This document shows positions 24,991 through 62,760 of a DNA stretch of 64,000 nt, piece after piece (the first letter of the stretch is position 1; each line of letters opens with the position of its first letter). The notes beneath the pieces were generated by a model. It searched no databases. It saw only the letters and a program-made list of their open reading frames with translations, and was not told the origin of the DNA. The translations under genes and the position numbers were made by a program. Source of the DNA: Schmidtea polychroa. Taxonomy: Eukaryota. Location of the stretch: NCBI GenBank assembly GCA_044892525.1, contig CM097885.1, positions 222,518,001-222,582,000 of the forward strand. Direction: 5' to 3'.

Positions 24991-27819
24991 CTATGTCAAA
25001 AATATAGAACTTACATCTTGATAGATATTGTCTACTTGTAATTTACAAAGTAATGTTTCGAAATTGGAATTTTGATCGTTTTGATGGAAAGCGTTAGAGG
25101 ATGAACTTGAATTACAATAAAGAGGATCAAGAATCAGTTTCATTGAATCTTCAATGATATTCTGATTAAATGCATCGTTATCTGTTACTAGATCTAAAGG
25201 AATATCGTAGGACTTTTTAGAATCTTTTTGGTTTTTAATATCCTTGATTTTCTCATCTTTTCGACAATTATTTGTAACAGCCGAGTGACCGGAATTTCTG
25301 TACATACATCTTTTTCTGTAGCAAAAATAAAAAATAAACACCACTAGCACAATAGATATCAATGAAGAAATCCCAATAATCGAAATCATTACTGGAAATG
25401 TGAGTGATGACGATAATGGAAATTGTAAGTACGACCTATCATGTCCCATTATGTACACAATTAAACTTTGTGAAGTATGAATATTTTTGGAATTTGCGTC
25501 GATTGCTTGAAGCTGAAGGGTTAGTTCACCTGGTTTTATGTTAAGTCTTTTGAAAGTTATTTCACCAGTCACGTGGTTTATTTCAAAAATGTCATTATGA
25601 TTATGGAGAAAGTAGTGTACCACATTATACTTATCACTGTCATTATCGACGGCTCTCACTCTTGTTAAAACTGAATCGCGGATGTTTTGTAAAGATATGT
25701 TCATTACATTGTCACGAATGTTTGGATATTGCCAGACTGGACCGTTATCATTTGTGTCAACTACATGAATATAAAATCTTTGGATATTACTTAAAGGAGG
25801 TTTTCCACTATCTGTTACTTTAACTGTGATTGAATACAAATCACACTCTTCATAGTCTAAGGTCACGTTAGAATAGATGATTCCAGTTGTGGGATTTAGT
25901 TCAAAAAGCTTTTCATTAATAGACCTTACATTGTTTTCGGAAGTTGTATTGAGCAAATAGTAATTAAGTTTGGAGTTGATTTCACTATCTTCGTCGAATG
26001 CTTGGATTTTTCCAATTTCATAGAAACCTTTTAAATTTTCTTGGACTTCAAATCTATTGGAAGCCAGTGAGAATTTCGGAACATTATCATTTACATCTAT
26101 CACATAGACAACAATTCTGGCGGAGGAAGTGAAGGATTTTATTCCACGATTGATTGCTAAAACGTTGAAAGACAACCTTTTAATTTTTTCATAATCTAAA
26201 ACAATTTTTGTTGAAATTATTCCGGAATTGTCTATTGTAAACCAGGTTGAACCTGGATCGGTGAGATCCAAGATTCTAGATTGGGTTAAATCTCGATCGT
26301 ATACTTTCACTGTTTTAACATTGGTTTCCGGGGATGTGTTTTCTTTGATGTATATTTCATATAAGTTTTGATCGAATGTTGGTTGGTATTCGTTTTCGTC
26401 TTTGATGTGGATCTCGACTTTTGTGGTCGCTGAATTTTGCGGTTCACCGTGATCATAACACAAAATATTTAGTGAAAAATATTTTGTCTCTTCGGCATCA
26501 AACGATTTGTCGGCAAGCAATTTATAAATACTTCTTTCATTTGTTTCAATAACGTTTATGATTTTGAAATAATTCAAGTAATTCTTATTAATAATTGACT
26601 GAATGTGACAAGAACATCGGGAATTTTCACCTTGATCGAGATCAGACACTGTTATAAAGGCTAATTGAAATGGAATTCTATTATTTTCTGACACTTCAAT
26701 AACAGTGTGATTCTGAAATTTAGAAATGAGAAAAGAATCTATCGGATTGACGAGAATCACCGGACTGTGGTTGTTTACATCGACGACGTGAAGAAAGATC
26801 CATGTTCGTCCGATCAAAGGATTCGGAGCTTTGTCAATGGCTTTGATAGAAAATTTAAATTTTGTCGGTTGATTAAATCTTTTAATAATTGAAATTTGAC
26901 CGGTTTTTTTGTTGATAGAAAAATACTTTTTCACTTCGTCCGCACCGGAGCTAAAACTGTATTCTAATTCACCAAATTCTCCATCGTCTTTATCGAAAGC
27001 TTTCGGAGAGAGAACAATTTCCCCGATTTGAGTATCTTCGTTTATAATTGCCGTATAATTCGATCTGTAAAACATGGGGGATTCATCATTTTCATTCGTA
27101 ATATTAATTATTATAGTTTGATTTCCACACAATGAAGGCTTACCATTGTCACAGGCTATTAGGATCACTTTATAGTGTTTTGTATTTTCATAATCAATAG
27201 GTCGTTCTAAAATAAGTTTCAAAGGGTTTTGTGATAAACTGAAAGGGAAATTAGATCTGTGTAAATGTTGAATCCCATATTGAATGGGTTGGAATTGATC
27301 TGAATCTAAGTCGACAGGTTCCTCTAAATTGATCTGAGTCTTCACTTTTGAAATTTCACTCAAAGATATCGACAAAAAAATTTGTCGAAATGCTGGCATA
27401 TTGTCATTGATGTCTATTATTTCTATATTGACATAAATCCACATCAGTTTATTTACAGAAACTATTTGGAGAATGGTACAGTTCTCATTTCTCTTTATCA
27501 TATTCAACTGGCATACGGATTCTCGGTCGATCTCAGAAATTGTCACCAAGTCTCCTGAGGAATTGTTGATTTTGAAAAGATTTTTCAAAGATCTCCCATA
27601 TCGGTTATGTGAGAGAGAGTGCGGTTCTTTGAAATCTTCTGAGTTTTCCAGTTGAAGTTGCACGTTACTGAAAAAGAATAATTGTGCAGATAAATTGATA
27701 TTTCCAACAATCGTTCCAATTGAGCAATTTTCAACAAGTTTGAAGGAAATTTCTTTCAGCATGGCTTTCGAAGAAAACAAAAGGTTCAGAATCAAAACTA
27801 GAAATCCTACTATCCACAT
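24991..27819 (-). CDS. Protocadherin, delta-like: signal peptide, 7 cadherin repeats, TM segment, cytoplasmic tail; large first coding exon
   Basis: 942-aa uninterrupted ORF with a hydrophobic N-terminus. Repeat linkers DINDNMP, NENDESP, DVNNHSP, DENEYQP, DVNDNVP and DTNDNGP define 7 EC repeats. EC1 has DRESVC...C (protocadherin-type Cys pair). TM segment is VMISIIGISSLISIVLVVFIFYFCY. Confidence 0.97.
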   Translation of the reverse strand: MWIVGFLVLILNLLFSSKAMLKEISFKLVENCSIGTIVGNINLSAQLFFFSNVQLQLENSEDFKEPHSLSHNRYGRSLKNLFKINNSSGDLVTISEIDRESVCQLNMIKRNENCTILQIVSVNKLMWIYVNIEIIDINDNMPAFRQIFLSISLSEISKVKTQINLEEPVDLDSDQFQPIQYGIQHLHRSNFPFSLSQNPLKLILERPIDYENTKHYKVILIACDNGKPSLCGNQTIIINITNENDESPMFYRSNYTAIINEDTQIGEIVLSPKAFDKDDGEFGELEYSFSSGADEVKKYFSINKKTGQISIIKRFNQPTKFKFSIKAIDKAPNPLIGRTWIFLHVVDVNNHSPVILVNPIDSFLISKFQNHTVIEVSENNRIPFQLAFITVSDLDQGENSRCSCHIQSIINKNYLNYFKIINVIETNERSIYKLLADKSFDAEETKYFSLNILCYDHGEPQNSATTKVEIHIKDENEYQPTFDQNLYEIYIKENTSPETNVKTVKVYDRDLTQSRILDLTDPGSTWFTIDNSGIISTKIVLDYEKIKRLSFNVLAINRGIKSFTSSARIVVYVIDVNDNVPKFSLASNRFEVQENLKGFYEIGKIQAFDEDSEINSKLNYYLLNTTSENNVRSINEKLFELNPTTGIIYSNVTLDYEECDLYSITVKVTDSGKPPLSNIQRFYIHVVDTNDNGPVWQYPNIRDNVMNISLQNIRDSVLTRVRAVDNDSDKYNVVHYFLHNHNDIFEINHVTGEITFKRLNIKPGELTLQLQAIDANSKNIHTSQSLIVYIMGHDRSYLQFPLSSSLTFPVMISIIGISSLISIVLVVFIFYFCYRKRCMYRNSGHSAVTNNCRKDEKIKDIKNQKDSKKSYDIPLDLVTDNDAFNQNIIEDSMKLILDPLYCNSSSSSNAFHQNDQNSNFETLLCKLQVDNIYQDVSSIFLT

Positions 27820-27972
27820 GAAAACATTGATTCCTGTTTAATTGTTGGCAATTATCATGGGGCATAAAAACCAATTTAATAAATTTTTTTTTAATTTTCT
27901 TATAACCTAATTAATTATAGTCCTTGTATTTTTGAAAAAAAATAAAATTGATCTTTTTTTTTGTTTTAATTT

Positions 27973-50418: not shown

Positions 50419-51005
50419 AGTAGTAGTGTAAATAGTAGTAGTGTAATAGTACCCCCTCCCTCGGGTGGGAAAATTAAAAAAATATTTTCAAGGTCAAATT
50501 TTAAACAAAGACATATAACACATCAAAGTCATTGAAACAAAGACCATGACTCATCCGATGACTCATTCCAGGTCATTCTCAAGATCGTATGACTCATCCG
50601 ATGATTCATCAATAAATTATTATTATTTTTAAAAATATTATTAATTGAGCTAGCGGTGACCTACTTTTTGGCACTACTATCATCTGATTCCATTGAACGA
50701 TGGTTCATTTTAAAGCCCACTACAAGACCTTTCGAATGAGGTAAGTACCACTATTTTTAAAGCTATTGACAATTTTCCAAGACCATGTTTCAATGTCTTA
50801 TTATTAATTTTCAAAATATTATTATTATTTTATTATTATTTTCAAAAATATCCTTTTTCCAAGGTCATATTATTTTTCAAGGACATATTATAATTTTTCA
50901 AGGTCATATTTTAAAATTTTATATTTTCAGAATTCCCGTCAACGGAATTTATTAAACGATGGTTCATTTAAAGCCCACTGCAAGACCTTTTCGAATGTGC
51001 TATAG
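50419..51005 (+). repeat. Left TIR of Polinton A
   Basis: Colinear with the reverse complement of 54812-55373. It contains two internal copies of aacgatggttcatt(t)taaagcccact.caagacct(t)ttcgaatg. Confidence 0.9.
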
Positions 51006-51036
51006 ACATCAATCTTATCATCATTAATTTTATAGA

Positions 51037-51110
<74 letters not shown>

Positions 51111-51498
51111 TTATTATTATTTTCAAAGTTTTATTATTTCAATCAGATATATAGTTGCATGCTCACTGCAAACTAAAGTAAATATGAACATTATTATCAT
51201 ATTAAATAAAAATAAGAAACTTTATAAAAATTTTAATTCTTTTAATGGCTCAACATAAAGTCTTAACCCACAATAAAAGCATTACAAGTTTTCAATAATA
51301 AAAAACAATTTTTAATATTCTTTCTATGTTTAAACATTTTTGGGAATTTTTTATAATATTACACAATAACATAATGTTTAAACATAGAAAGAAATGTTAA
51401 AACTATAACGAGTTTTCAATAATAAAAAGGTTTTCTAATATAAAATTCAATACAAATCAATGTTTTTATAAAAATATAATAATTGAACATCATCAATG

Positions 51499-53590
51499 TC
51501 AATATAACCCATCATCAAAATCCGGACTATTTCCATCAAAAAGTGGCCCAACTTCAAATATTTGGTCATCATCCGGAACATCAATCCCTAAATAGTGACC
51601 ATATGCCAGACTGGAATTAGGCCCCACCCATAGTCTCTTGTAATCGTTGTTCGACAAGGCTATTTTACTATTCTTAAAAGTAAAGAGCTGGTGAATACGG
51701 GTTCTTATTTTCGTTTGTGTCACTCTATATACTACGCTGTTGTTGTAGCAGTCTAAATAAGAATGGTGCCCTATCTCAATATTTAATAACTTGACTCCCT
51801 TAGCCCTGAGTGTTGCCTTATCTCCTAACAAACTATAACACTTAGGGCGCAAGAAATCCTACTCGCTATAGCCCAGCCCTTTACTTTTGTCCTTAAATTT
51901 GCCTTAAATTTGCCTATTAAATTTGCCTAAATTCAAACCTGTACTTGGTCAATTCCACATACTGTAGTTGATACATTCTTAGTTTAGACAGGTCTAGCAT
52001 TGATTGTCCTATGTAACTAAGCCTGTCTAAACATATGGAATCTTTATTCAGATGGGCGGCAATCAAGTCATCATCAATTTTGATTGATTTCCTGAAAGTC
52101 GTCTTTGAGGCATATAGAATCATCTTTTCAGTTGAATTGCTTAGCCTCAAATTCATCCGCTTTTTCAGATTCTCCACCGATTTCCCATACAAGCTAATAT
52201 TAAATAATTTTTTTAGATCCCTATATAATTCACATGTGGAAATAACCCGTAAGTCTGTGTTTATATATATATCTATGTACATTATTAATAATAGCCCCCA
52301 ATTCTATATACATCTTGAGAAGCCGCCAATGAAGAACATGGTTCTTCTTTGGCCAATGCGTGAGCATCAGCTTCTCAACTTTCGAATTTGCCAGGCACAT
52401 CTTTTCCTATGCAATCGAAATATCATTCAGAAACTCATGCAAACAATCAGGGATATCAATATCGACCTTCATAGTATAGCCATATGGAAGATTATCGATA
52501 TCAGCATTCTTACATTCATTCAAGACATCATCCAGATTGTCATACACCCATTGAAAGTCAGCATACGGCAGGTTTTGGCTAAGAGCCCAACCAGATTATT
52601 TACATCAATGTATAAGAGTTCTGTGTCTTCAGAACGTGCAACATAATGTTTATTAAATGTTAACCCACCCCGTAACCTTCCTTCATAGAAATTATACATT
52701 TCCATCTCCTGCAGAAGTTCTATGGGTTCCGTTAATGTCATAAGCACTGAGGCCCATGACATACCGGGGATTCCATAAAAATTAAGAGGCTCGAGATCAT
52801 TGTAAGCAATTGCCTTTTCACGGAATTGCTGAAAATAATCTGCGAGGAGAAACACGTCTAACTTCAGGTAAGTTAACATGTAATCTAACATGTTGTTGCA
52901 GATTTGCTAAGTCCAAATAACTTGTGCAAAAAGAACTTGGGCACACTCATCATTAGACACAGAATTCCAGATAAGAGGTAGTTCAAGAGTCGATTACAGA
53001 TCCTCAAGAAATGTGGCGAAGTCATAAGGAAAAATACCTTTGGCTCGAACTATTGCGTCATCAAAGACAGAAGAAGTTAAAGGCAAATCGGAAAGTGTCT
53101 TAACCGCTTTTGCTAAAGATGAATTAACAAACTGCATGCTGTCAATAAAACGAACAGGCAATTTGTTAATATACGCTATGACAGAGATGAATTTTTCCGT
53201 AGTAGTCGGAATAATATTTAATTCCCAAGAAGGAAAATTATTCAGACCATACTTCAAAATATGATGGAGATCATACTCCCTCAAATTATGATAGACAATA
53301 GGTAACTGTCTCTGAATTCGCCGAGACACATTACAATTCCTACAAGCAGCACCAAAATACTTACCTGAGAAGTGGCAATGGTCCCTTACTCTATGTATAA
53401 TAGATTTCTTGCAAAGATAACAGGTCCTGGAATATCGAAAAGCCCGCTCTTCAGTGAAAGATTAGGTTTGAATAGGTTTTCGCCCATTCATTTCGTAATA
53501 CGGCAGGACAATTGTGACAGCAATTTCCTCAACCTTACGAAGGAAAGACAACACACAATCCTCACCAACAAACTCATAATAAAATCTAGA
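51499..53590 (-). pseudogene. Protein-primed DNA polymerase B (pPolB) of Polinton A
   Basis: CYLCKK...VRDHCHFSGKYFGAACRNCN; LPIVYHNLREYDLH; RFIDSMQF...SSL; KGIFPYD; YLKLDVFLLAD; RGG...LLYIDVNNL; LYGKSVEN; YIGQSMLDLSK; LRPKCYS...AKGV. Frameshifted; the YxDTDS segment is missing. Confidence 0.95.
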
Positions 53591-53615
53591 TTTATTACAA
53601 TTATTAATTAATAAC

Positions 53616-53920
53616 ATGCCTGCTGTTATTGGCAAGCGTTAGTAATGACTACAGAATAGGACCAAAAATAATAAATAATAATTAATTACCGAATTATTTA
53701 TTATTTAGAAGATTTAGGATTCGATGAAACTGATAAGGAAGTCACTGAAGAAATTGGTGTTGATGATGACGACGACACTCAAGAAATTGATGAGGAACCT
53801 ATAGATGAACCTAATGATACGGAAAATATTATGAATGATAACGATTGTAACGATTGTGTAGATCATGTCGTTGAAAATGTTATGAAATGTGGAGATGACG
53901 ATTGCGAGTGTGTTAATTAA
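53616..53920 (+). CDS. Unknown small acidic protein with C-terminal Cys cluster (copy 1), probably spliced
   Basis: Open frame 53708-53920: EDLGFDETDKEVTEEIGVDDDDDTQE...NDCNDCVDHVVENVMKCGDDDCECVN*. Acceptor tttAG at 53708. Candidate exon 1 starts at ATG 53616 with a weak phase-1 donor at 53638. Confidence 0.6.
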
Positions 53921-53983
53921 TAAATTTTAAAATTTATTTATTTCTTTTAAAGAAAAAACAACGTAACTACATTAATTTTAATT

Positions 53984-54477
53984 TTAAAATTTACAAATAA
54001 TATACAAGATGGCAACACCTGTTGCAAGTTTAATATAGTTTTTAAACTTCGTATTTTGCTGATCGATTTACCTGGCATTTCGGGCCAGTTCATTGAGTGT
54101 ACCCCATCCACCATTGGCTTCTATCCATGGAGTAAACTTGGACTTGATTATCTAAATATGAATATTATTAATATATAGATAATAACTAAAAACTTACTTC
54201 TTGAGACCACTATTAGTAATTCTCTGAGTCCCATGAACTTTTATCTATAATAATTTTCATAAAAGTGAACCCTACAATTATTCGGGTTCACTTCATTTCG
54301 TCATCGAATAGGCAATTGAAGATTCTATTGAAGCAGAACTTCTTCGTCTCCAGAAAATCCATATCCAGTATGTTCTGGTAATCAATATGATTCCCTTAAA
54401 TGATTTCTTCAGTCTTCCGTAAGGATTGTATTGACGAGCTCATTTAGCAAGTTGTCGATAAAATTAGGTTGCGACAT
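53984..54477 (-). pseudogene. Bcl-2-family gene (copy A) inside Polinton A, two exons
   Basis: Exon 1: MSQPNFIDNLLNELV...FNRIFNCLFDDEMK*TRIIVGFTF...WSQE (BH1-like). A 46-nt GTAAGT...TTTAG intron (54197-54152) follows. Exon 2: IIKSKFTPWIEANGGW (BH2)...YIKLATGVAILYIICKF* (hydrophobic tail). One frameshift and five in-frame stops. Confidence 0.85.
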
Positions 54478-54600
54478 TTATTTGTTCAATAATTTAAAAT
54501 ATAATGTTTTATTTATACTACTACAGAATTGTGTGCAATATGATTCTGATTGGTTAATAGACTATAAATGTAAAATATATACGTTTTGATTTGATACAAC

Positions 54601-54812
54601 ATGAATACAATATTTCTATTGGTAATCAGTATAATGAGCGTGTGCTCACACAATACAACAATAACGGTGGAGTCTTCAAATAAATCAATATGTGTTTGTC
54701 CAAATACTGCAAAGTTGATGGACTTATATATTATTGACAAACCAAAATGGGCAAAGCATCCAGGAAAAAGAATATCCGAAAGATTGGAGAATTTTGAAAA
54801 CACCTATGACCT
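54601..54812 (+). CDS. Short ORF with signal-peptide-like N-terminus, divergent from Bcl-2 copy A
   Basis: MNTIFLLVISIMSVCS-HNTTITVESSNKSICVCPNTAKL... The frame runs into a (TA)n tract and the right TIR. A CCAAT box (tgattggtt, about 54548) lies in the intergenic spacer. Confidence 0.35.
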
Positions 54813-55373
54813 ATATATATATATATATATATATATAACTCATTCGAAAGGTCTTGCAGTGGGCTTTAAAAGGAACCATTGTTCAATCAAATACATTGGC
54901 GGGAACTCTGACAATTTAAATTATTAAAATATGACTCTGAAAAAAATAATAATATTTTGAAAATTAATATTATGACCTCGAAACATGGTCTTCGAAAATT
55001 GTTAATATCTCTAAATATAATAAGATATTTATAATTCATTCGAAACGTCTTGCAGTGGGCTTTAAAATGAACCATCGTTCAATGAAATCAGATGACAGGA
55101 ACAATAACTTCTGGGGTGCCATAAAATAGGTCACCGCTGGCTCAATTAATAGTATTTTTAAAAATAATAATAATTTATTGATGAGTCATCGGATGCGTAA
55201 TACGACCTTGAGAATGTCCTTGAATGAGTCATCTGGTGAGTCATATGACTTTGGATGAGTCGTCGCGTGAGTCATGGTCTTTGTTTCTATGACCTTGATG
55301 AGTCATATGTCTTTGTTTAAAATTTGACCTTGAAAAAAAAATTTATTTCCCACCCGGGGAGGGGTGGACTACT
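54812..55373 (-). repeat. Right TIR of Polinton A
   Basis: Ends ...GGGGAGGGGTGGACTACT (55373). Reverse complement aligns with the left TIR. Confidence 0.9.
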
Positions 55374-56149
55374 GACCCAGTGGTGACCAATTCATCTACT
55401 TATAGTAAAGTAAGGAAAATAATTTACGGATAAACTTAGTATTGAAAAATTCAAATAAAATAAATTTGTAAATCTAAATAACAGCAAGTCGTTAAATTAG
55501 AATAAAAAATATATTCTCATAATTAAAAGAATTTCATTCATTTTAAATAAAGTTACTATGAAAATAGTGTAAAAATTTTTTTTCAAAATTTTTCAAAGTA
55601 AAACAAACAATTTTAAAATTTCCAATTTCATTTAAACAAAATCAATTGAAATATTTTTCAAAAATTAATTCCCTAATAATGTGGTCGATTCTCGTAGATT
55701 TTTATTGCCATTAACAATTGATCCTAATGAGTAAATTATTTGTTTGTATTGGGCAAGTTTCCATATAATGATTATGAACATCAATACGATTTGCAACAAT
55801 CACCTCTGAATCCCTGTTCGAAATCATCCAACATACAATTAGTGCTTTGTAAGTAAAACAAACAAAATTATTATATTTCTAAATGAAAGTATTAATTTTT
55901 GTTTTCATTTTTTATTAATATATTCGGAGTTTTATTACTAATATTTTTATAAATTTAATTTTATTTTGTAAATATCAATGCATTGTCCAATTTATTTCTG
56001 ATTTAAAATAATTATTAATTCCTTTATAATTTGTTTAAATCATAGATTCGCTATAATTCAGTAATTGTTAACCTGGGTCACTTGTCGCCTTTAATTATTG
56101 TCGTTTTCTTTAAATGCTATTTTTTTCAAATCCATCATGAAAATGAGTT

Positions 56150-57240
56150 CTACAATTACTGCAAAGTAATTTTTAAGTTTTTAGTCAAATACATGTTATG
56201 GTTCAGATACATTTAAACAGACTTCATAGCAATATCTTTCTTCCGTTGAACATATTTTATTGTAGATACCTTCATTTTTTAGTAGAATATAGAATTTTAT
56301 CGTTAAAATCAGATTGCATTGAATATATGTTTAAATTATAATAGATGGTTCTATCCGAAAGGTAATCGACTGGGTAACCTTGGCAAGCAGTTTCTCTTGT
56401 TTAAAGTATCTGGATCCTCTATTTAAAATTTTTTAAATTTCTTTGAATTAAGAGTATTGTCAGGAATATTTGGCTAATTTATCTACTATTATTTATCGTC
56501 TATGACTAATCCACAAAGGTTTACGTATTCGTAATTGGCAACTTCTCCCAACAAAAAGAACGATGATCATTCCATTCAATGGATTCTATCTTGCAGTTTT
56601 AGGAACATGCAGTGCATTACAAGGAAAACATGATATTTCGTGGAATTGTTTTGCGATTGCCTATATTAGTAGCGTCAAACAAAAACATCGGATTTATCAC
56701 TATTTATTGCCGTTCGTTCCGTAATTTATATACATATCTAATTCTTTCAAAAAAACCTTTATTCCATAAATCAAAATCATACAATCCACGTTTATTTGGA
56801 GATTTTTAACGTTGTAGTAATTAAAGGTACAAATGCACATTACAAGCTACAGCTTTGAGGAAATAACAAAGCGTGCTTTAGATTTATTTTTCCAAATCCA
56901 AACCTTGCAATGCTGCACTGATGAATTGAGACAATTGAAAAGTCAAGAGCAATTATTCAATGTTTGAATGTCCACCTGGATAACTAATGTTGGCGCTTTT
57001 ATTGCCATTTGTAATGTTTTACATATTAAAGATTCATCGAATAATGTTGAAATAATATATATATAAAGCGCATGTTGTCTGTATCCTTTTGTTGACTATA
57101 GCAGTTTTATTAGACAACGATGATGGTGTTGGTATATATGGAACTTGTTAATGAAGGAAATGAATACAGAGAATACCATCAAACTTCTTACTATTATCTT
57201 CGAGAACACCTATTTTACCTTTGAATAAAATGTTTATAAA
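56150..57240 (-). pseudogene. pPolB N-terminal region, highly degenerate
   Basis: QVPYIPTPSSLSNKTAIVN...CALY matches the SYIPxP..L..KxAIVN...C motif of Polinton pPolB. Downstream is a C-x2-C...H...C remnant (CTACS*NCKIESIEWNDHRSFC). Confidence 0.6.
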
Positions 57241-57329
57241 TAAGTTAAATGTTTGCCTATGGGTTCTAGCATATCAGGATTGTCAGCAATCATTTTTATG
57301 GATAACCTCGAACGACAAACATTGAGGAC

Positions 57330-57490
57330 TATACAATCCATCGGTTTCTGAGCAAGTTATAAGGATATCTTTATCATAACCAAAAGCAGAATCATCACGT
57401 ATATTTATTTTTATATTGTTTATACATGAGGTTGAGACAGGTAAATACGTGGAATTTTCTATGGTGATTTCTACAACTTCATCCTGTTCT
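57330..57490 (-). pseudogene. Penton (minor capsid) C-terminal fragment
   Basis: EVVEITIENSTYLPVSTSCINNIKINIRDDS, homologous to NNSTYLPTIIKTIDSISFKIVDQ in the 29.3-kb penton. Confidence 0.65.
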
Positions 57491-57529
57491 TGTAGATTTC
57501 AATTGATTGTATTACTTTACTAAATTTAT

Positions 57530-58100
57530 TTCTGATATCCATGTCGGTTTTTGATACCCATGCTACTTGACATAGTATTGTTTATCCTTACCTATCTTTT
57601 TAGTTTTCAATATTTTATGAATTCTAAATACTTTTGGCGAAGGAATAACTTTTAATTCTTGTTCAAAAATTTAACCATCAACCTTTCCATTATTATAGTC
57701 TTTAATGATATACATACTGGATAGTATTGATTTTTGAGATTCTAAAAACATCATTATTCTAGTTTGTATCGAATTTTTTTATGAATGGAGAAGCATTAAT
57801 TTTAATAATTCTAACATGATCAACCATTTTATATTTAGGATTTTTAATTTTTTCAATCTTTTTCGAAAGCTGTAAATCAATAGATTGTTTTGATGAAATA
57901 CCTATATGTCTCAAGCCTTTCAAACCTTGGTGCGACGAATGATCATAACCATATATAGTTTGAGGCAAAGCATTAATCCATGTCTTATTACCTTGATGCG
58001 CAAACAATTCATTCACTTTTTCGAGTGGTAAAATAGTTGTACAAAGTATTCAGATTTCCATACTATTGTTGAAGGAATTATAAACGATGTAAAGGATTTG
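57530..58100 (-). pseudogene. Polinton retroviral-like integrase C-terminal half with chromodomain-like tail
   Basis: KTWINALPQTIYGYDHSSHQGL...KNPKYKMVDHVRIIK...FIKKFDTN, then LKDYNNGKVDG*IFEQELKV...FRIHKILKTKKIGKDKQYYVK*HGYQKPTWI. Confidence 0.85.
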
Positions 58101-58149
58101 ATTTTTTCTCTAACAATTTCTTCAAGTATAACGATTTTTGTAACGAGGA

Positions 58150-58476
58150 TTTGCTCGAATATTTATCTACATGATGGTAATTGTTATTTATTTTAAATTT
58201 TGTTTTTATTTTTATTTAGAAACTATGCTAAACGTGTTGATTGATAAAATCAAAGTTTTTTATCCAAACTTGAACAATTCCTTAATGTATTGTGCTCCAG
58301 AAGTTGTGTTTTACAAATTTTGTGAAATAACTAGAATAAATGTCATAGAATTAATTCATATGGATCATTCTACGATTGCATGTTGCACTGACGATGTTGA
58401 AAATTGTGATTTTTGTACAAATAATATACGGAATACTTGTGGGGATGATAGTTGTACATGTTTTGTGAATCTATAA
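58150..58476 (+). CDS. Unknown Cys-tail protein (copy 2), spliced
   Basis: 43-nt phase-1 GT-AG intron (58177-58219). Exon 2 is uninterrupted: ETMLNVLIDKIK...DDVENCDFCTNNIRNTCGDDSCTCFVNL*. The start of exon 1 is not determined. Confidence 0.65.
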   Translation, partial: FARIFIYMMVIVIYFKFCFYFYLETMLNVLIDKIKVFYPNLNNSLMYCAPEVVFYKFCEITRINVIELIHMDHSTIACCTDDVENCDFCTNNIRNTCGDDSCTCFVNL

Positions 58477-58760
58477 AAATGATAAATACTTTATGTATTA
58501 CTTGTTGAATTGCATAAAAGGTATTGTTGTAATATAAAATATGCATGTATAAAATTATATTAGTTTTGTGATAATATTACCTTACTAACCTACAACCTTT
58601 AAAAATCCTTTATTTGCATACAATAAATCATTTAAGACTTTGTTAATTAGCATAAAATATATTAGTTGATCACGTTTTGATCATATCTGTCATTTAAAAC
58701 CTTTTTACAATAGAATTAGTATAAATATCTTGTTCAAATCATTACTGATTACAACTAAAA

Positions 58761-59325
58761 ATGGATTATCAAATTACAAGTTTGTTGTTCTTTGCAAATA
58801 TTCCATTTAATAGATTTTTAATTTAGGAGTATTGAAGAGAAAAAAATGTTGATGCTGCTCAAGAATTTGGAAAATGGAAATTTATAGAAGAGACATTATC
58901 TTTGGAAACCTTATTCATGGTTCAAGTTGATACAAAAAAGCCTGTAGAAATTGTACAATACAAACAAAATTATTTATATTGTCCAATTTCTTATATATTT
59001 AAGCTAAGTTTTTATAAATTACTTTGGATTTGATTATTTTATTGTTAGGAACCATTAACTCTTGAAAAATGTTTTTATAAAGTGCAATTTTCAAAAATCA
59101 AGTTAAACGATAAGATCAAATTGGGACAATTTTTTCAGAGAATGAACAAAAATATAGAATTCAATGAAGAATAAATGTTTATCAAATGCGATTTGGACGT
59201 AATTCCCAGTGAAGAGATGAGTAAAATAACTTGCATGGTTATAGTACTCATTCAAGGATATAATATAAGCAGAAAAGAAATAAAACCGATTTGGAAGATT
59301 ATAAAAGCTTAAGAAAATTTTGACG
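58761..59325 (+). pseudogene. Unknown spliced gene (about 150 aa) within Polinton B
   Basis: Long nearly open frame NVDAAQEFGKWKFIEETLSLETLFMVQVDTKKPVEIVQYKQNYLYCPISYIFK|EPLTLEKCFYKVQFSKIKLNDKIKLGQF... Two intron-like segments: 58780-58826 (GT-AG, 47 nt) and 59004-59048 (CTAAGT...TTAG, 45 nt, donor apparently mutated). Confidence 0.45.
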
Positions 59326-59436
59326 ACGATTGTTGTATAGTTTCAATCCTATTTTAATAAGTCTTTGGTTAATTGGTCTTTTTAAATAATAATGTCATAA
59401 CTTTTATAAAAATAACTAAATCAAGTTTTAAATTTA

Positions 59437-59828
59437 TTAATTATCACATGTGCAGTTTTGATCTTTACAATTTCCTTTCATCATATTTTAACAACATGAT
59501 CAATACAATTAGGAAAATTATTAGATTCATCTTCTTGTTTAGGTTCATTTGGTGATTTATCAGTTGTAGAATTCTCAATACATGACTTAATTTCTTCACT
59601 AGGTAAATCATTACATTCATAATCATTTGCGTGCTTGCTTTTTTCTTTATTAATTTCATCGTCTGATTACGGTGATTTTAATTTCTCTTGAACATTCATA
59701 AATTCGCTAATTTTTACATTAGACATTTCCTCTAATTTATCAATCAAAAATTTGATAATATATGCTAATTAAAAAAATAATTAAAGATTAAAAAAATCAT
59801 ATTTTACCTTTTTCGACATGGTTGACAT
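59437..59828 (-). pseudogene. Unknown Cys-tail protein (copy 3), spliced
   Basis: MSTMSKK, then a 43-nt GT-AG intron (59807-59765), then YIIKFLIDKLEE...EDESNNFPNCIDHVVK/MMKGNCKDQNCTCDN*. One stop and two 1-nt frameshifts. Confidence 0.7.
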
Positions 59829-59866
59829 AATTTCAAATGAAAAATAATTTTGTATATACCTTAATT

Positions 59867-60061
59867 CAGTGTTTCTCAAACTATGGGTCGCGAAAGAATT
59901 TTTGGTGGGTCGCGATGACTTATGGAAAGATCTACAAATATAAATTTTGGAAGTTTAAGCCTTTTAAATTTATTTAATCTTTGTCATGTGGGTCGCAATA
60001 AAATTTTTGGCATGAAATGTCAAAAATTTGGGTCGTGATCAAAAAAGTTTGAGAACCACTG
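59867..60061. mobile_element. hAT (Charlie/Buster-like) MITE, 195 bp
   Basis: TIRs CAGTGTTTCTCAAAC / GTTTGAGAACCACTG. Perfect 8-bp TSD CCTTAATT (59859-59866 and 60062-60069). Confidence 0.96.
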
Positions 60062-60114: not shown

Positions 60115-60657
60115 TTAAAGTTTTAGATACACTTTAATAAATGTATATACAACTCCAAATCCAGTCATTAGTTTGAAAAAAATCTTTTAAATTTTCACAT
60201 TTGACATCATTCTCGTTTGATTTTGTAACGAGTTCAAACATCATAATCCATCCATCATGATTATCGACCCATGACAAAATTTTTGATTCAATAATCTAAA
60301 TAATGAGGATAATAATAATATCAAGTTAATCATCAAAATAATACATCTCTGCAGACCATTGAAAATAATTTTCAAGTCTGAGCCGACTTCTCTAAAATAT
60401 GTTTCACACCTGAAACCTATAATAATTCGTTACCATTTAATTTTATCATCGAATAATGTATAAAATATTTCCTCGAATAATTTTTGTTTGTTCAATTGTC
60501 TCTCTCAATTGATAATAGTGTTGTACTCGATACGATTATCTTCAACGATTTTTTCTGAGCAATTAACAAGAAATTGCAGATTATTGATCACCTCGTTAGT
60601 TTCTTTGTTACAGACAAGATCATTTAACACGTCAATCATAAATTTCGTTTACTTCAT
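60115..60657 (-). pseudogene. Bcl-2-family gene (copy B) inside Polinton B, two exons
   Basis: Exon 1: TKFMIDVLNDLV...LFEEIFYTLFDDKIKW*RIIIGF...ENYFQWSAE. An intron of about 49 nt (60344-60296) lies at the same position as in copy A. Exon 2: IIESKILSWVDNHDGW...KLMTGFGVVYTFIKVYLKL*. Stops and frameshifts present. Confidence 0.82.
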
Positions 60658-61934
60658 TTATAAATAATTGTTGAAATTTTGGTATATTTATATTATTTGT
60701 ATTAATAAAAGAATATGACATAAAAGAAAAATTAATTTTAATAATATTCAACTTTTAATTTTAATTTACAAACTACAGCGCCAGCCCCTTCCTGGCAATG
60801 GGTGTCACTGATGATTTTAATCTTTGTATTTTGAATTATGTACATTTACATGTTTTGTGGTGAAATGTTGATTTAAAAAATGGTGTAAGTTGTGAGAGAA
60901 AAGTTTAAAATTTTGTTTTTGGGTATTTTAAAATTTGGGAAATTTTGAGGAATTTATTTTTGGGAATTTTCTGAGTTGTGAAAATCTTGTAAATATCTTA
61001 TATCTTATACGTGTGATTTTTTATTAATCAAAAGTAGTAGATGGTATATATTCCTCCAAGTATTTTTATTGATTTTTTCTAAGATGACTAAGATGTATTT
61101 CCAAGTATTTTTTATATATAAAATTTATTTCTATAATAAAGTGGTGTGACCTTCATATTAAAGTACTTGGAGTTGACCTACATATTTTTAAAAAAATTGT
61201 CTAAGTATTTTATCAAAGCTTTTGTTCATTGTCCCACCATGTGTTGAAAAATATGAATTTATTTCTATAATAAAATGTTTTCTATGTTTGATAATATATA
61301 AAAATTGTTATATTATGGCATTTGATGCTGAAGTTATTCATTGTTTCGTTATGTGTTGAAGCATACGATTTTAATTCTATAATATAAGACTGGAGTGATT
61401 ATCATAATATATAAAAGTTATTATATTATGGCATGACCTACATTTTAATTTACAGGCTTTGGAGCTCATTTCCATGGAAACTAGGCATTTTTATATATAA
61501 ACACCATATATTTTCGTGACCTACATAAAATTCTGAGTCGGCCTAGATATTTTCCAGGGTGGGGGTGGATACTTATTTTTAAAAAAATATTTTAATTAAT
61601 TATTATTTTTGAAATATCTCATTCAGGGTACCCACCACAGATTTTATATTATTTTATTTGTATTTGTCTCATTATTTGTCATTTTCACATACCTGTTTTA
61701 ATTCATTTTTTTACTTTATTTATTAATTTTTGAATTTAAATAAGTCTTGTCCTTTTTATCGATTTGCACTCGATTCTCTGTGTATTTACGTTTCTTTTGC
61801 ATCATCCTAGACAACACCTGACATATTTAATTACTATTTATATTTATATTCTAAAAAAGCTATTTATTTATTATTCATAACTATTTCTTAATTAACCCAA
61901 GTTATCGATCATGAACCATAACATGCAAAAGTTT

Positions 61935-62190
61935 ATCCAACTTACAAATTTTAATTTAGGAAGAACGAATAGGTGTTACGAGAAACGATATTAATTTCAC
62001 AGATGAATTCATTGCAATATTTTTGTAACTCTTCATCATGGTATTAGTGCATATTAAGTTTAGATAGATCCAGTAACTTGGTCTATTCAAATAAATCAAT
62101 TCTTTATACCCAAATACACCTATTTTACCTTTCAACAAAAGATATATTGAAAGGTGTAACAGTGAGTTCTGGTATTTTGGACTTGTTAGT
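61935..62190 (-). pseudogene. Third pPolB fragment (palm region), outside the element B terminus
   Basis: KELIYLNRPSY / LLDLSKLNMH*YHDEELQKYCNEFICEINIVSRNTYSFFL, homologous to the SICLDRLSYIGQSMLDLSKLRMY segment of pPolB A and including a decayed DTDS (NTYS). Confidence 0.75.
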
Positions 62191-62199
62191 AATCATTTT

Positions 62200-62760
62200 T
62201 TATGGATAACATCAAATTACAGACACTCGTAACCATACAATATGTTAGTTTTTTCGTAAGATATGTAGTGGATATTTTTAGCATAACCAAGAGCAAAAAA
62301 GAAATGAATGAAATATTTTATATATCCAATGCGACTCACCAATATATTAAGTTTTAAATCGAATATCCAGAAAAATGAATCTCTCAATCTACTGGATTTA
62401 AGAATCAAAATAGATGTTCACGAATATCACAATAACGATATTGAAAGTATAAATTCAAATCCACAAAGACCTTGATACACGACACAAACTGGAAGACATA
62501 TTTTATCTGAATATTTTATCGACTTCAGGGTCCTAAATGAATTTAAGGACACTGACCGTCAAATTAGTTAAAAAAACAAATACCAGAGTTTCAGAACATC
62601 TGGATCCTACTGGAAAATCCTCGTTATACAGACAATTCCAACAATATAAACCAATGAAGAAGTAAAATAATATTTCAATTAAAATCTTAGTCAGTGATAA
62701 CGTTCCAAAAATTTGAGATTTAAAGAAGCTTTTCTTATCATAAATAAATATATAAAATTT
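62200..62760 (+). mobile_element. Penelope-like relic: RT fragment plus GIY-YIG C-terminal fragment
   Basis: FFVRYVVDIFSI...NATHQYIKF...LLDLRI, then TNTRVSEHL...KSSLYRQ...IKIL...KEAFLI. Confidence 0.8.

Follow-up and report, generated by a model that had tools for sequence, protein, structure and literature searches.

A dead two-exon Bcl-2-like gene in a B-family Polinton relic of Schmidtea polychroa, probably captured from the host

A broken Bcl-2-like gene and its surroundings

We analyzed a stretch of 64,000 nucleotides from the genome of Schmidtea polychroa, referred to here as the window. Its minus strand holds, at positions 60657-60115, a broken two-exon Bcl-2-like gene (copy B) with an ATG at 60657 and a stop codon at 60117-60115. 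Projection onto natural reference exons revealed three stops and three frameshifts in total. Exon 1 (60347..60657, minus strand) encodes helices 1 to 6 and the BH1 region and carries the three stops and two of the frameshifts; its open part matched the Pfam Bcl-2 family at E 0.011. Exon 2 (60115..60295, minus strand), with one frameshift, encodes BH2 and a predicted tail anchor. A predicted phase-0 intron of 51 nt separates the exons (60296..60346, minus strand), with AT at the donor and TTTAG at the acceptor; since it starts with AT and not GT, copy B is left without a usable donor. Compared with 14 other genomic copies of the same type, to which it is 81-86% identical, copy B ranks among the most decayed, and it is dead and without function.

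A second broken copy of the gene (copy A; 53984..54477, minus strand) consists of exon 1 at 54477-54198, a 46-nt GT-AG intron, and exon 2 from 54151. Exon 1 of copy B aligned with copy A at 37.0 bits, compared to a maximum of 21.9 among 100 doublet-shuffled stretches, and the two copies are 39% identical over 138 readable codons. A preliminary description of this DNA had quoted six peptide motifs from each copy, all of which we found at the places given. The shared intron site that it described is phase 0 and occupies the same aligned position in both copies (between E and I of W-S-x-E-I), and its distance of about 0.9 kb from start codon to element end was reproduced in both, at approximately 920 bp for A (ATG 54477, end 55400) and 915 bp for B. 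Its label of paralog was wrong, as copy B is the counterpart of copy A in a sister family of elements and not a within-element paralog.

Copy A is housed in a separate, internally deleted A-family Polinton (50430..55400) with its own inverted repeats. This element retains the C-terminal part of the protein-primed DNA polymerase B (pPolB; 51502-53638, minus strand), which matched Pfam DNA_pol_B_2. Since this polymerase groups with those of the A3 and B families (71-84%) and not with A1/A2 (59-61%), the A element is a mosaic. Copy B lies outside its inverted repeats, so the B relic is a separate insertion and, as had been proposed, an independent Polinton.

The right terminal region of the B relic (60736..61572) contains internal deletions. 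Its end is clipped: homology to other B copies stops at about 61572, and the final part of the terminus present in most of them is missing. Just beyond the Bcl-2 stop sits a 195-bp MITE (59867..60061), which we take to be hAT-like, with short terminal inverted repeats and an 8-bp target duplication (CCTTAATT); it is absent from the other B copies compared. Further along, positions 58018-59866 are collinear, at 81% identity, with the B element L139. This segment holds a remnant of an orphan accessory ORF, orfV (59487..59732, minus strand), a distant homologue of the A-family neighbor orfA; a remnant of the accessory orfC (58180..58356, plus strand; a weak match of 29.6 bits, collinear with L139); and the 3' remnant of a TBP-like gene (58018..58116, plus strand), collinear with L139:4651-4749, whose counterparts in sister families match Pfam TBP. 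The C-terminal half of a Polinton integrase (57515..58015, minus strand) clusters with B-family integrases. It is followed by the end of a putative minor capsid gene (57385..57492, minus strand), named by its position in the element on what we presume to be the usual Polinton layout, and by an 83-bp pPolB remnant (57058..57140, minus strand) that is 87-88% identical to B-family pPolB DNA. These last three pieces stand in the same order as in L139/L140. The 83 bp are the only pPolB of the relic itself, since the piece at 61957-62076 falls beyond the end of the element. Most core genes, the left end, and the outermost part of the right end are thus gone from the relic, and the MITE has been added; a left terminal inverted repeat (TIR) and a target duplication were looked for in the window and none was found.

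Other features were noted in the window. A further pPolB fragment lies just past the end of the B relic (61915-62300) and includes a stretch 68% like 57206-57391. On the minus strand, a 948-aa open frame (24994-27837) resembles a protocadherin exon by eye, and on the plus strand an open frame at 33288-33629 matches Pfam Suf/CstF-77 (E 4e-20) in fragmentary surroundings.

Element families, protein identity, and selection

DNA searches of the species' own genome returned at least 41 matches to copy B (40 scored out of 273 candidates) and at least 40 to copy A (40 scored out of 1751). The B family is very abundant, with hundreds of dispersed copies sharing flanks. A near-complete B insertion of approximately 15 kb (L139/L140) has inverted ends and a duplicated 6-bp target, AATATT, and its genes run in the order Bcl-2, orfV, orfC, TBP, ATPase, integrase, capsid genes, and pPolB. 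Terminal inverted repeats starting with AGT and the 6-bp target duplication are therefore present at the family level (L139/L140), though not preserved in the window relic. The B element contains the protein-primed polymerase (in L140) and a homologue (in L139) of the retroviral-type integrase, which matches Pfam rve and chromo domains in A and C. A packaging ATPase (Pox_A32) and an adenovirus-type protease (Peptidase_C5) gave Pfam matches in Polintons of this genome; within the B family the ATPase occurs in L139 and the protease in the B-type L106, and both are deleted from the window relic. The capsid ORFs are of apt size and conserved in place across A, B, and C, with no Pfam match; the names major and minor capsid are our assumption from the general layout of Polintons. 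A-type Bcl-2 genes exist in many near-identical, unbroken copies housed in full Polintons, and a third carrier, the C family, has an intronless Bcl-2 and a different gene order. A small TBP gene is present in all three families (L091:5248-5709, L107:6578-7045, and L139:4651-5099), matching Pfam TBP at E 6e-15 in A and 2e-14 in C. We dropped a candidate gene 5' of the B-type Bcl-2, orfU, because it is present at both element ends within the inverted repeat, of which it is part. Decayed Bcl-2-like copies with 48-58% identity to B were also observed at L105:4939-5251 and L121:4821-5031 and probably represent further element families.

The C-type protein matched Pfam Bcl-2 (PF00452) at 32.5 bits and the A-type, read through its in-frame intron, at 32-35 bits (cut-off, 31.4); exon 1 of A or B alone scored 22-25 bits (B, 22.8-25.4), which is under the cut-off. 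The structural model of the C-type protein (pLDDT 71) matched Bcl-xL/Bcl-2 with a probability of 1.00 and a TM of 0.6. Its top viral structural matches were Bcl-2 homologues, and its top Atlas cluster was viral Bcl-2/E1B-19K-like (0.93), with recognition under threshold. The model of B exon 1 (pLDDT 72) had no match at E 0.001 (best E 0.13, TM of about 0.4), and its match list was filled with Bcl-2 proteins, all weak. A Bcl-2-like identity of the gene is supported. A word-based protein search with the C-type protein scored none of four candidates, and a profile search over 1.84 billion representatives gave three matches, the two retrieved being unnamed singletons. Against viral contigs, none of three candidates for A exon 1 was confirmed. 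P0002, a spliced relative of the host gene discussed below from another source, was searched against metagenome contigs; the one stretch confirmed out of 596 holds a Bcl-2 of 32% identity with an unrelated gene as its neighbor and was not informative.

The BH1 region reads W-S-R in B and W-T-R in A, so that the canonical Gly-Arg dipeptide of NWGR is absent from both, the Arg being retained and the Gly substituted. The Arg is kept in 21 of 30 B copies and in 24 of 24 A copies. At the Gly position, Ser stands in 28 of the 30 B copies (two were unreadable) and Thr in 23 of the 24 A copies; the Gly is replaced in every readable A, B, and C copy, and the host donor too has Ser. The BH2 residues GGW are conserved, per position, in 24-26 of 30 B copies and 23-24 of 24 A copies. 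The C-type protein has Lys in place of the BH1 Arg and GDW in place of GGW. The C-terminal tail is a hydrophobic stretch of 19 residues with modest mean hydropathy (1.1-1.2, versus 1.8 for P0002). In alignments, no Bak/Bax-type BH3 (small residue-Asp; Gly-Asp signature) was found in helix 2 of A, B, C, or the host donor.

Selection was measured with a branch codon model on 17 natural copies (160 codons). The inner branches, together with the ends of three unbroken A representatives, gave a dN/dS of 0.16 (p 4e-29 versus 1), while the end branches of 10 B copies gave 0.78 (p 0.15), a decay value biased downward by stop masking. The ends of four broken A copies, each the sole representative of its subfamily, gave 0.14. 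On the stem between A and B, the branch length reached its upper bound, the saturation ceiling being lowered in this AT-rich DNA; since the stem is saturated, its dN/dS can be given without a numeric value as well below 1 (2dL 44). Pairwise values were 0.07-0.13 among A subfamilies and 0.15-0.24 for A versus B where computable, and 0.54-0.88 for the window copy B and two sisters. In agreement with these estimates, differences between window copy B and five sisters are spread nearly evenly across codon positions (e.g., 24/20/21), whereas those between families show a third-position excess (56/50/94; 29/26/71). The gene was under purifying selection while the element families diverged and decayed neutrally after insertion. 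The earlier suggestion of a long-standing, selected gene therefore stands: dN/dS is 0.16 on the inner branches, the capture is older than the saturated A/B split, and between families dN/dS is nowhere near 1 but far below it.

Host origin and the helix-6 intron

The intron shared by A and B is 30-56 nt long, with constant ends. At B loci, the donor is GT in 25 of 30 and the acceptor AG in 27 of 30; all 24 A loci examined (13 of 30 from the genome DNA search and 11 others) have a GT or GC donor and an AG acceptor. With the intron omitted, A and B are collinear with the host gene, and with C to within one residue. Contigs from 4 of 13 runs over an A-type copy covered the intron with no junction, which is consistent with DNA and speaks neither for nor against splicing. 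From the sequence we predict a gene model in which this helix-6 intron is spliced out in A and B. For dinoflagellates, PMC11957031 reports introns within Polinton-like elements.

The nearest host relative is a single-copy gene (G000:C1:268.54 Mb; next match 48%) that lies among ordinary genes, with no Polinton gene in the annotated 20 kb. It is 44-45% identical to C and approximately 30% to B, while C is only 22-32% identical to A and B. The host gene and P0002 resemble the Polinton Bcl-2 genes in the W-S-R of BH1, a helix-6 Y..WS motif, BH2, and tail length. Unlike A and B, the host gene has a GT..AG intron of approximately 3 kb directly after GGW and none in helix 6; an intron after GGW is common to four other host family members (eight host-like loci inspected). 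A clade of the host gene with A, B, and C was recovered at 83/91 (34 rows) and 92/95 (18 rows), with bootstrap below 95, and the A+B clade at 98/100 and 99/99, respectively. We consider an origin by capture of the host Bcl-2 gene through an RNA copy likely. A processed copy of the gene at 268.54 Mb would have entered a Polinton, having lost the intron after the BH2 motif, and the ancestor of A and B would then have gained the new intron in helix 6, which is absent from both the host gene and C. Processed-copy capture followed by a single intron gain on the A+B stem is the simplest history.

A variant compatible with this explanation, to which we give somewhat less than an even chance, is a double capture of the host gene, first in the A/B ancestor and subsequently in family C; Bcl-2 would then be old in A/B without being one clade-wide inheritance. 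Two captures would fit the closer identity of C to the host gene than to A or B, the missing intron and differing gene order of C, and the AU test, in which a clade of C with the host gene was not rejected (p 0.34). Against them, the best tree unites A, B, and C, albeit with weak support (55/51), TBP and integrase separate C from A/B likewise, and A and B may merely evolve faster.

Two further groups of host loci were observed. Seven near-identical copies of a canonical, NWGR-type Bcl-2 with an intronless BH1-BH2 stretch lie at G000:C4:89.9-90.8 Mb (L061-L067) and represent either a tandem expansion or an assembly duplication. Two adjacent Bak-like host genes lie at G000:C1:83.22-83.24 Mb (L073, L075, and L184); one of them has a BH3 motif in an upstream open stretch, and a Bak-like host exon had no match among PDB sequences.

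Candidate function and exchange of element modules

In our reading, which we hold to be fairly probable, copy B is a dead copy of a host-captured, two-exon Bcl-2 gene of B-family Polintons that likely encoded a tail-anchored blocker of cell death. Upon de-repression of an element, the 160-aa product would be anchored in the outer membrane of mitochondria, and its groove would bind the BH3 helices of host killers, so that apoptosis would be delayed during element replication. For this membrane-anchored, BH3-binding mode of action, by analogy with viral Bcl-2 proteins, our confidence is slightly lower, though still on the favorable side. The anti-apoptotic reading draws on the fold, the retained Arg, BH2, the tail, the absent killer BH3, the selection, and that viral analogy. 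The loss of the BH1 Gly makes a canonical groove less likely; when this Gly is mutated, pro-survival activity is lost, according to passages of PMC2836074 and PMC9609553. Planarian Polintons are described in part of PMC8532177 as silenced piRNA targets that are de-repressed in differentiation, which offers a setting for the action of the Polinton Bcl-2, not proof of it.

The same origin and selection could also have preserved a Bcl-2 fold that serves something besides BH3 capture, which we consider rather unlikely; examples, equally so, are a protein that replaces the host donor protein or acts as its decoy, or one that dampens innate signaling. Some poxvirus Bcl-2-fold proteins dampen innate signaling. 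That no readable A, B, or C copy, nor the host donor, retains the BH1 Gly is in line with such a role, as are the Lys and GDW of the C-type protein. However, the Arg, BH2, and tail anchor have been retained under selection in A and B, and variola F1L has LGVR instead of NWGR (PMC9609553, in the text available), so the BH1 motif is variable among viral apoptosis blockers.

A role in blocking cell death has parallels in known systems. Adintoviruses, the animal Polintons/Mavericks, are stated to carry Bcl2 and IAP homologues in the main text available of Starrett et al. (2021; PMC8502044), whose Fig. S2 text bears the label Bcl2 three times; the part of its supplement text searched contains no planarian entry. 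Like the Polintons described here, adintoviruses combine a Bcl-2-like accessory gene with pPolB, integrase, packaging ATPase, capsid genes, and protease. Compared with that report, the present case offers a gene with an intron, a host donor that can be traced, selection that was measured, and carriage by three element families. Viral Bcl-2 proteins (iridovirus A0A068QLP8, African swine fever virus [ASFV] A179L, gammaherpesvirus vBcl-2, and adenovirus E1B-19K) have the same short, loopless fold and are the top structural matches of the C-type model. The Polinton proteins differ from them in the absent BH1 Gly and in having a host gene as nearest relative, and the identity is only 13-22%. Planarian Burro LTR retrotransposons also carry a BCL2-like domain, as stated in part of PMC6431247, and many long-ORF Bcl-2 matches in this genome are of the Burro type. 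Burro thus resembles the Polintons in that it is mobile, inhabits the same kind of genome, and carries a Bcl-2 fold, but its domain belongs to a polyprotein of multiple thousands of residues and falls outside the group of Polinton and host-donor genes in our trees; by that placement, it is a separate capture. In the literature searched, which excluded most subscription journals and Repbase, there was no description of a planarian Polinton Bcl-2 gene. As Bcl-2 cargo is known from adintoviruses/Polintons, at least from the available text of PMC8502044, what is new is the comparison of B, A, and C, the measured selection, and the swapping of modules.

The preliminary description regarded Bcl-2 as a gene of one Polinton clade and proposed testing it for a common phylogeny with pPolB. 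Co-descent was borne out for part of the element: the TBP and integrase trees reproduce the A/B split (100/100 and 100/83). It failed for the polymerase and capsid genes, whose trees conflict. Elements with A-type Bcl-2 fall into two pPolB clades, and A-type carriers as one clade were rejected by AU tests for pPolB (p 6e-13), the major capsid (p 0.013), and the minor capsid (p 0.003), with the grouping set by Bcl-2 type, though after the gene trees had been viewed. For each gene, 8-11 elements were sampled, and nested insertions might mimic part of the discordance; L155, L132, and L147, in which pPolB is not tied to the same insertion as Bcl-2, were kept out of the pPolB tree, and two short rows (A32 and Bp105) out of the AU tests. 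Synonymous divergence between A1 and B was 0.70-0.75 for Bcl-2 and TBP and 0.48-0.53 for ATPase, integrase, and major capsid. This larger divergence indicates that the accessory arm split before those three genes, which were later exchanged. Bcl-2 shares its history with TBP and integrase, and it is the polymerase and capsid genes that were swapped; the accessory arm (Bcl-2, the orphans, and TBP) would have been passed among polymerase and capsid backbones by recombination. Strict descent of Bcl-2 with the whole element, under which its tree would equal those of pPolB and the capsid genes, fits the TBP and integrase trees but is very improbable: the unequal divergence speaks against it, and the AU rejections refute it, provided that the sampled elements are true single insertions.

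Copy B is also unrelated to a host locus, its family being dispersed across the genome and the host relative a separate single-copy gene. We give practically no credence to a host pseudogene or neutral passenger unrelated to the neighboring fragments, which would share the neutral decay of the window copy itself but not the hundreds of dispersed copies with the same flanks, the collinearity over 1.85 kb with a B element bounded by TIRs, or the between-family dN/dS far below 1.

Within one genome, the donor gene, the loss and gain of introns, purifying selection in three families, and module swapping can be followed together, which turns a published one-line remark on adintovirus Bcl2 homologues into a traceable case. 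Selection on a gene of an apoptosis family favors the idea of these elements as viruses that have to keep the host cell alive, and in a planarian host, the function is open to direct tests by RNA interference and with RNA data that already exist. A wider interpretation, which we regard as doubtful, is that a host-derived, intron-gaining arm of Bcl-2 and TBP is older than, and swapped among, the polymerase and capsid backbones of the elements, that Burro and Polintons together mark apoptosis as the main barrier to mobile elements, and that unbroken copies alter cell-death readiness via a BH1 groove lacking the Gly. Were it true, this groove would be of an uncharacterized kind, mobile elements in an animal that keeps adult stem cells would meet their chief obstacle in apoptosis, and the unbroken copies, numbering in the hundreds and active in differentiating cells upon de-repression, would shift the propensity of host cells to die.
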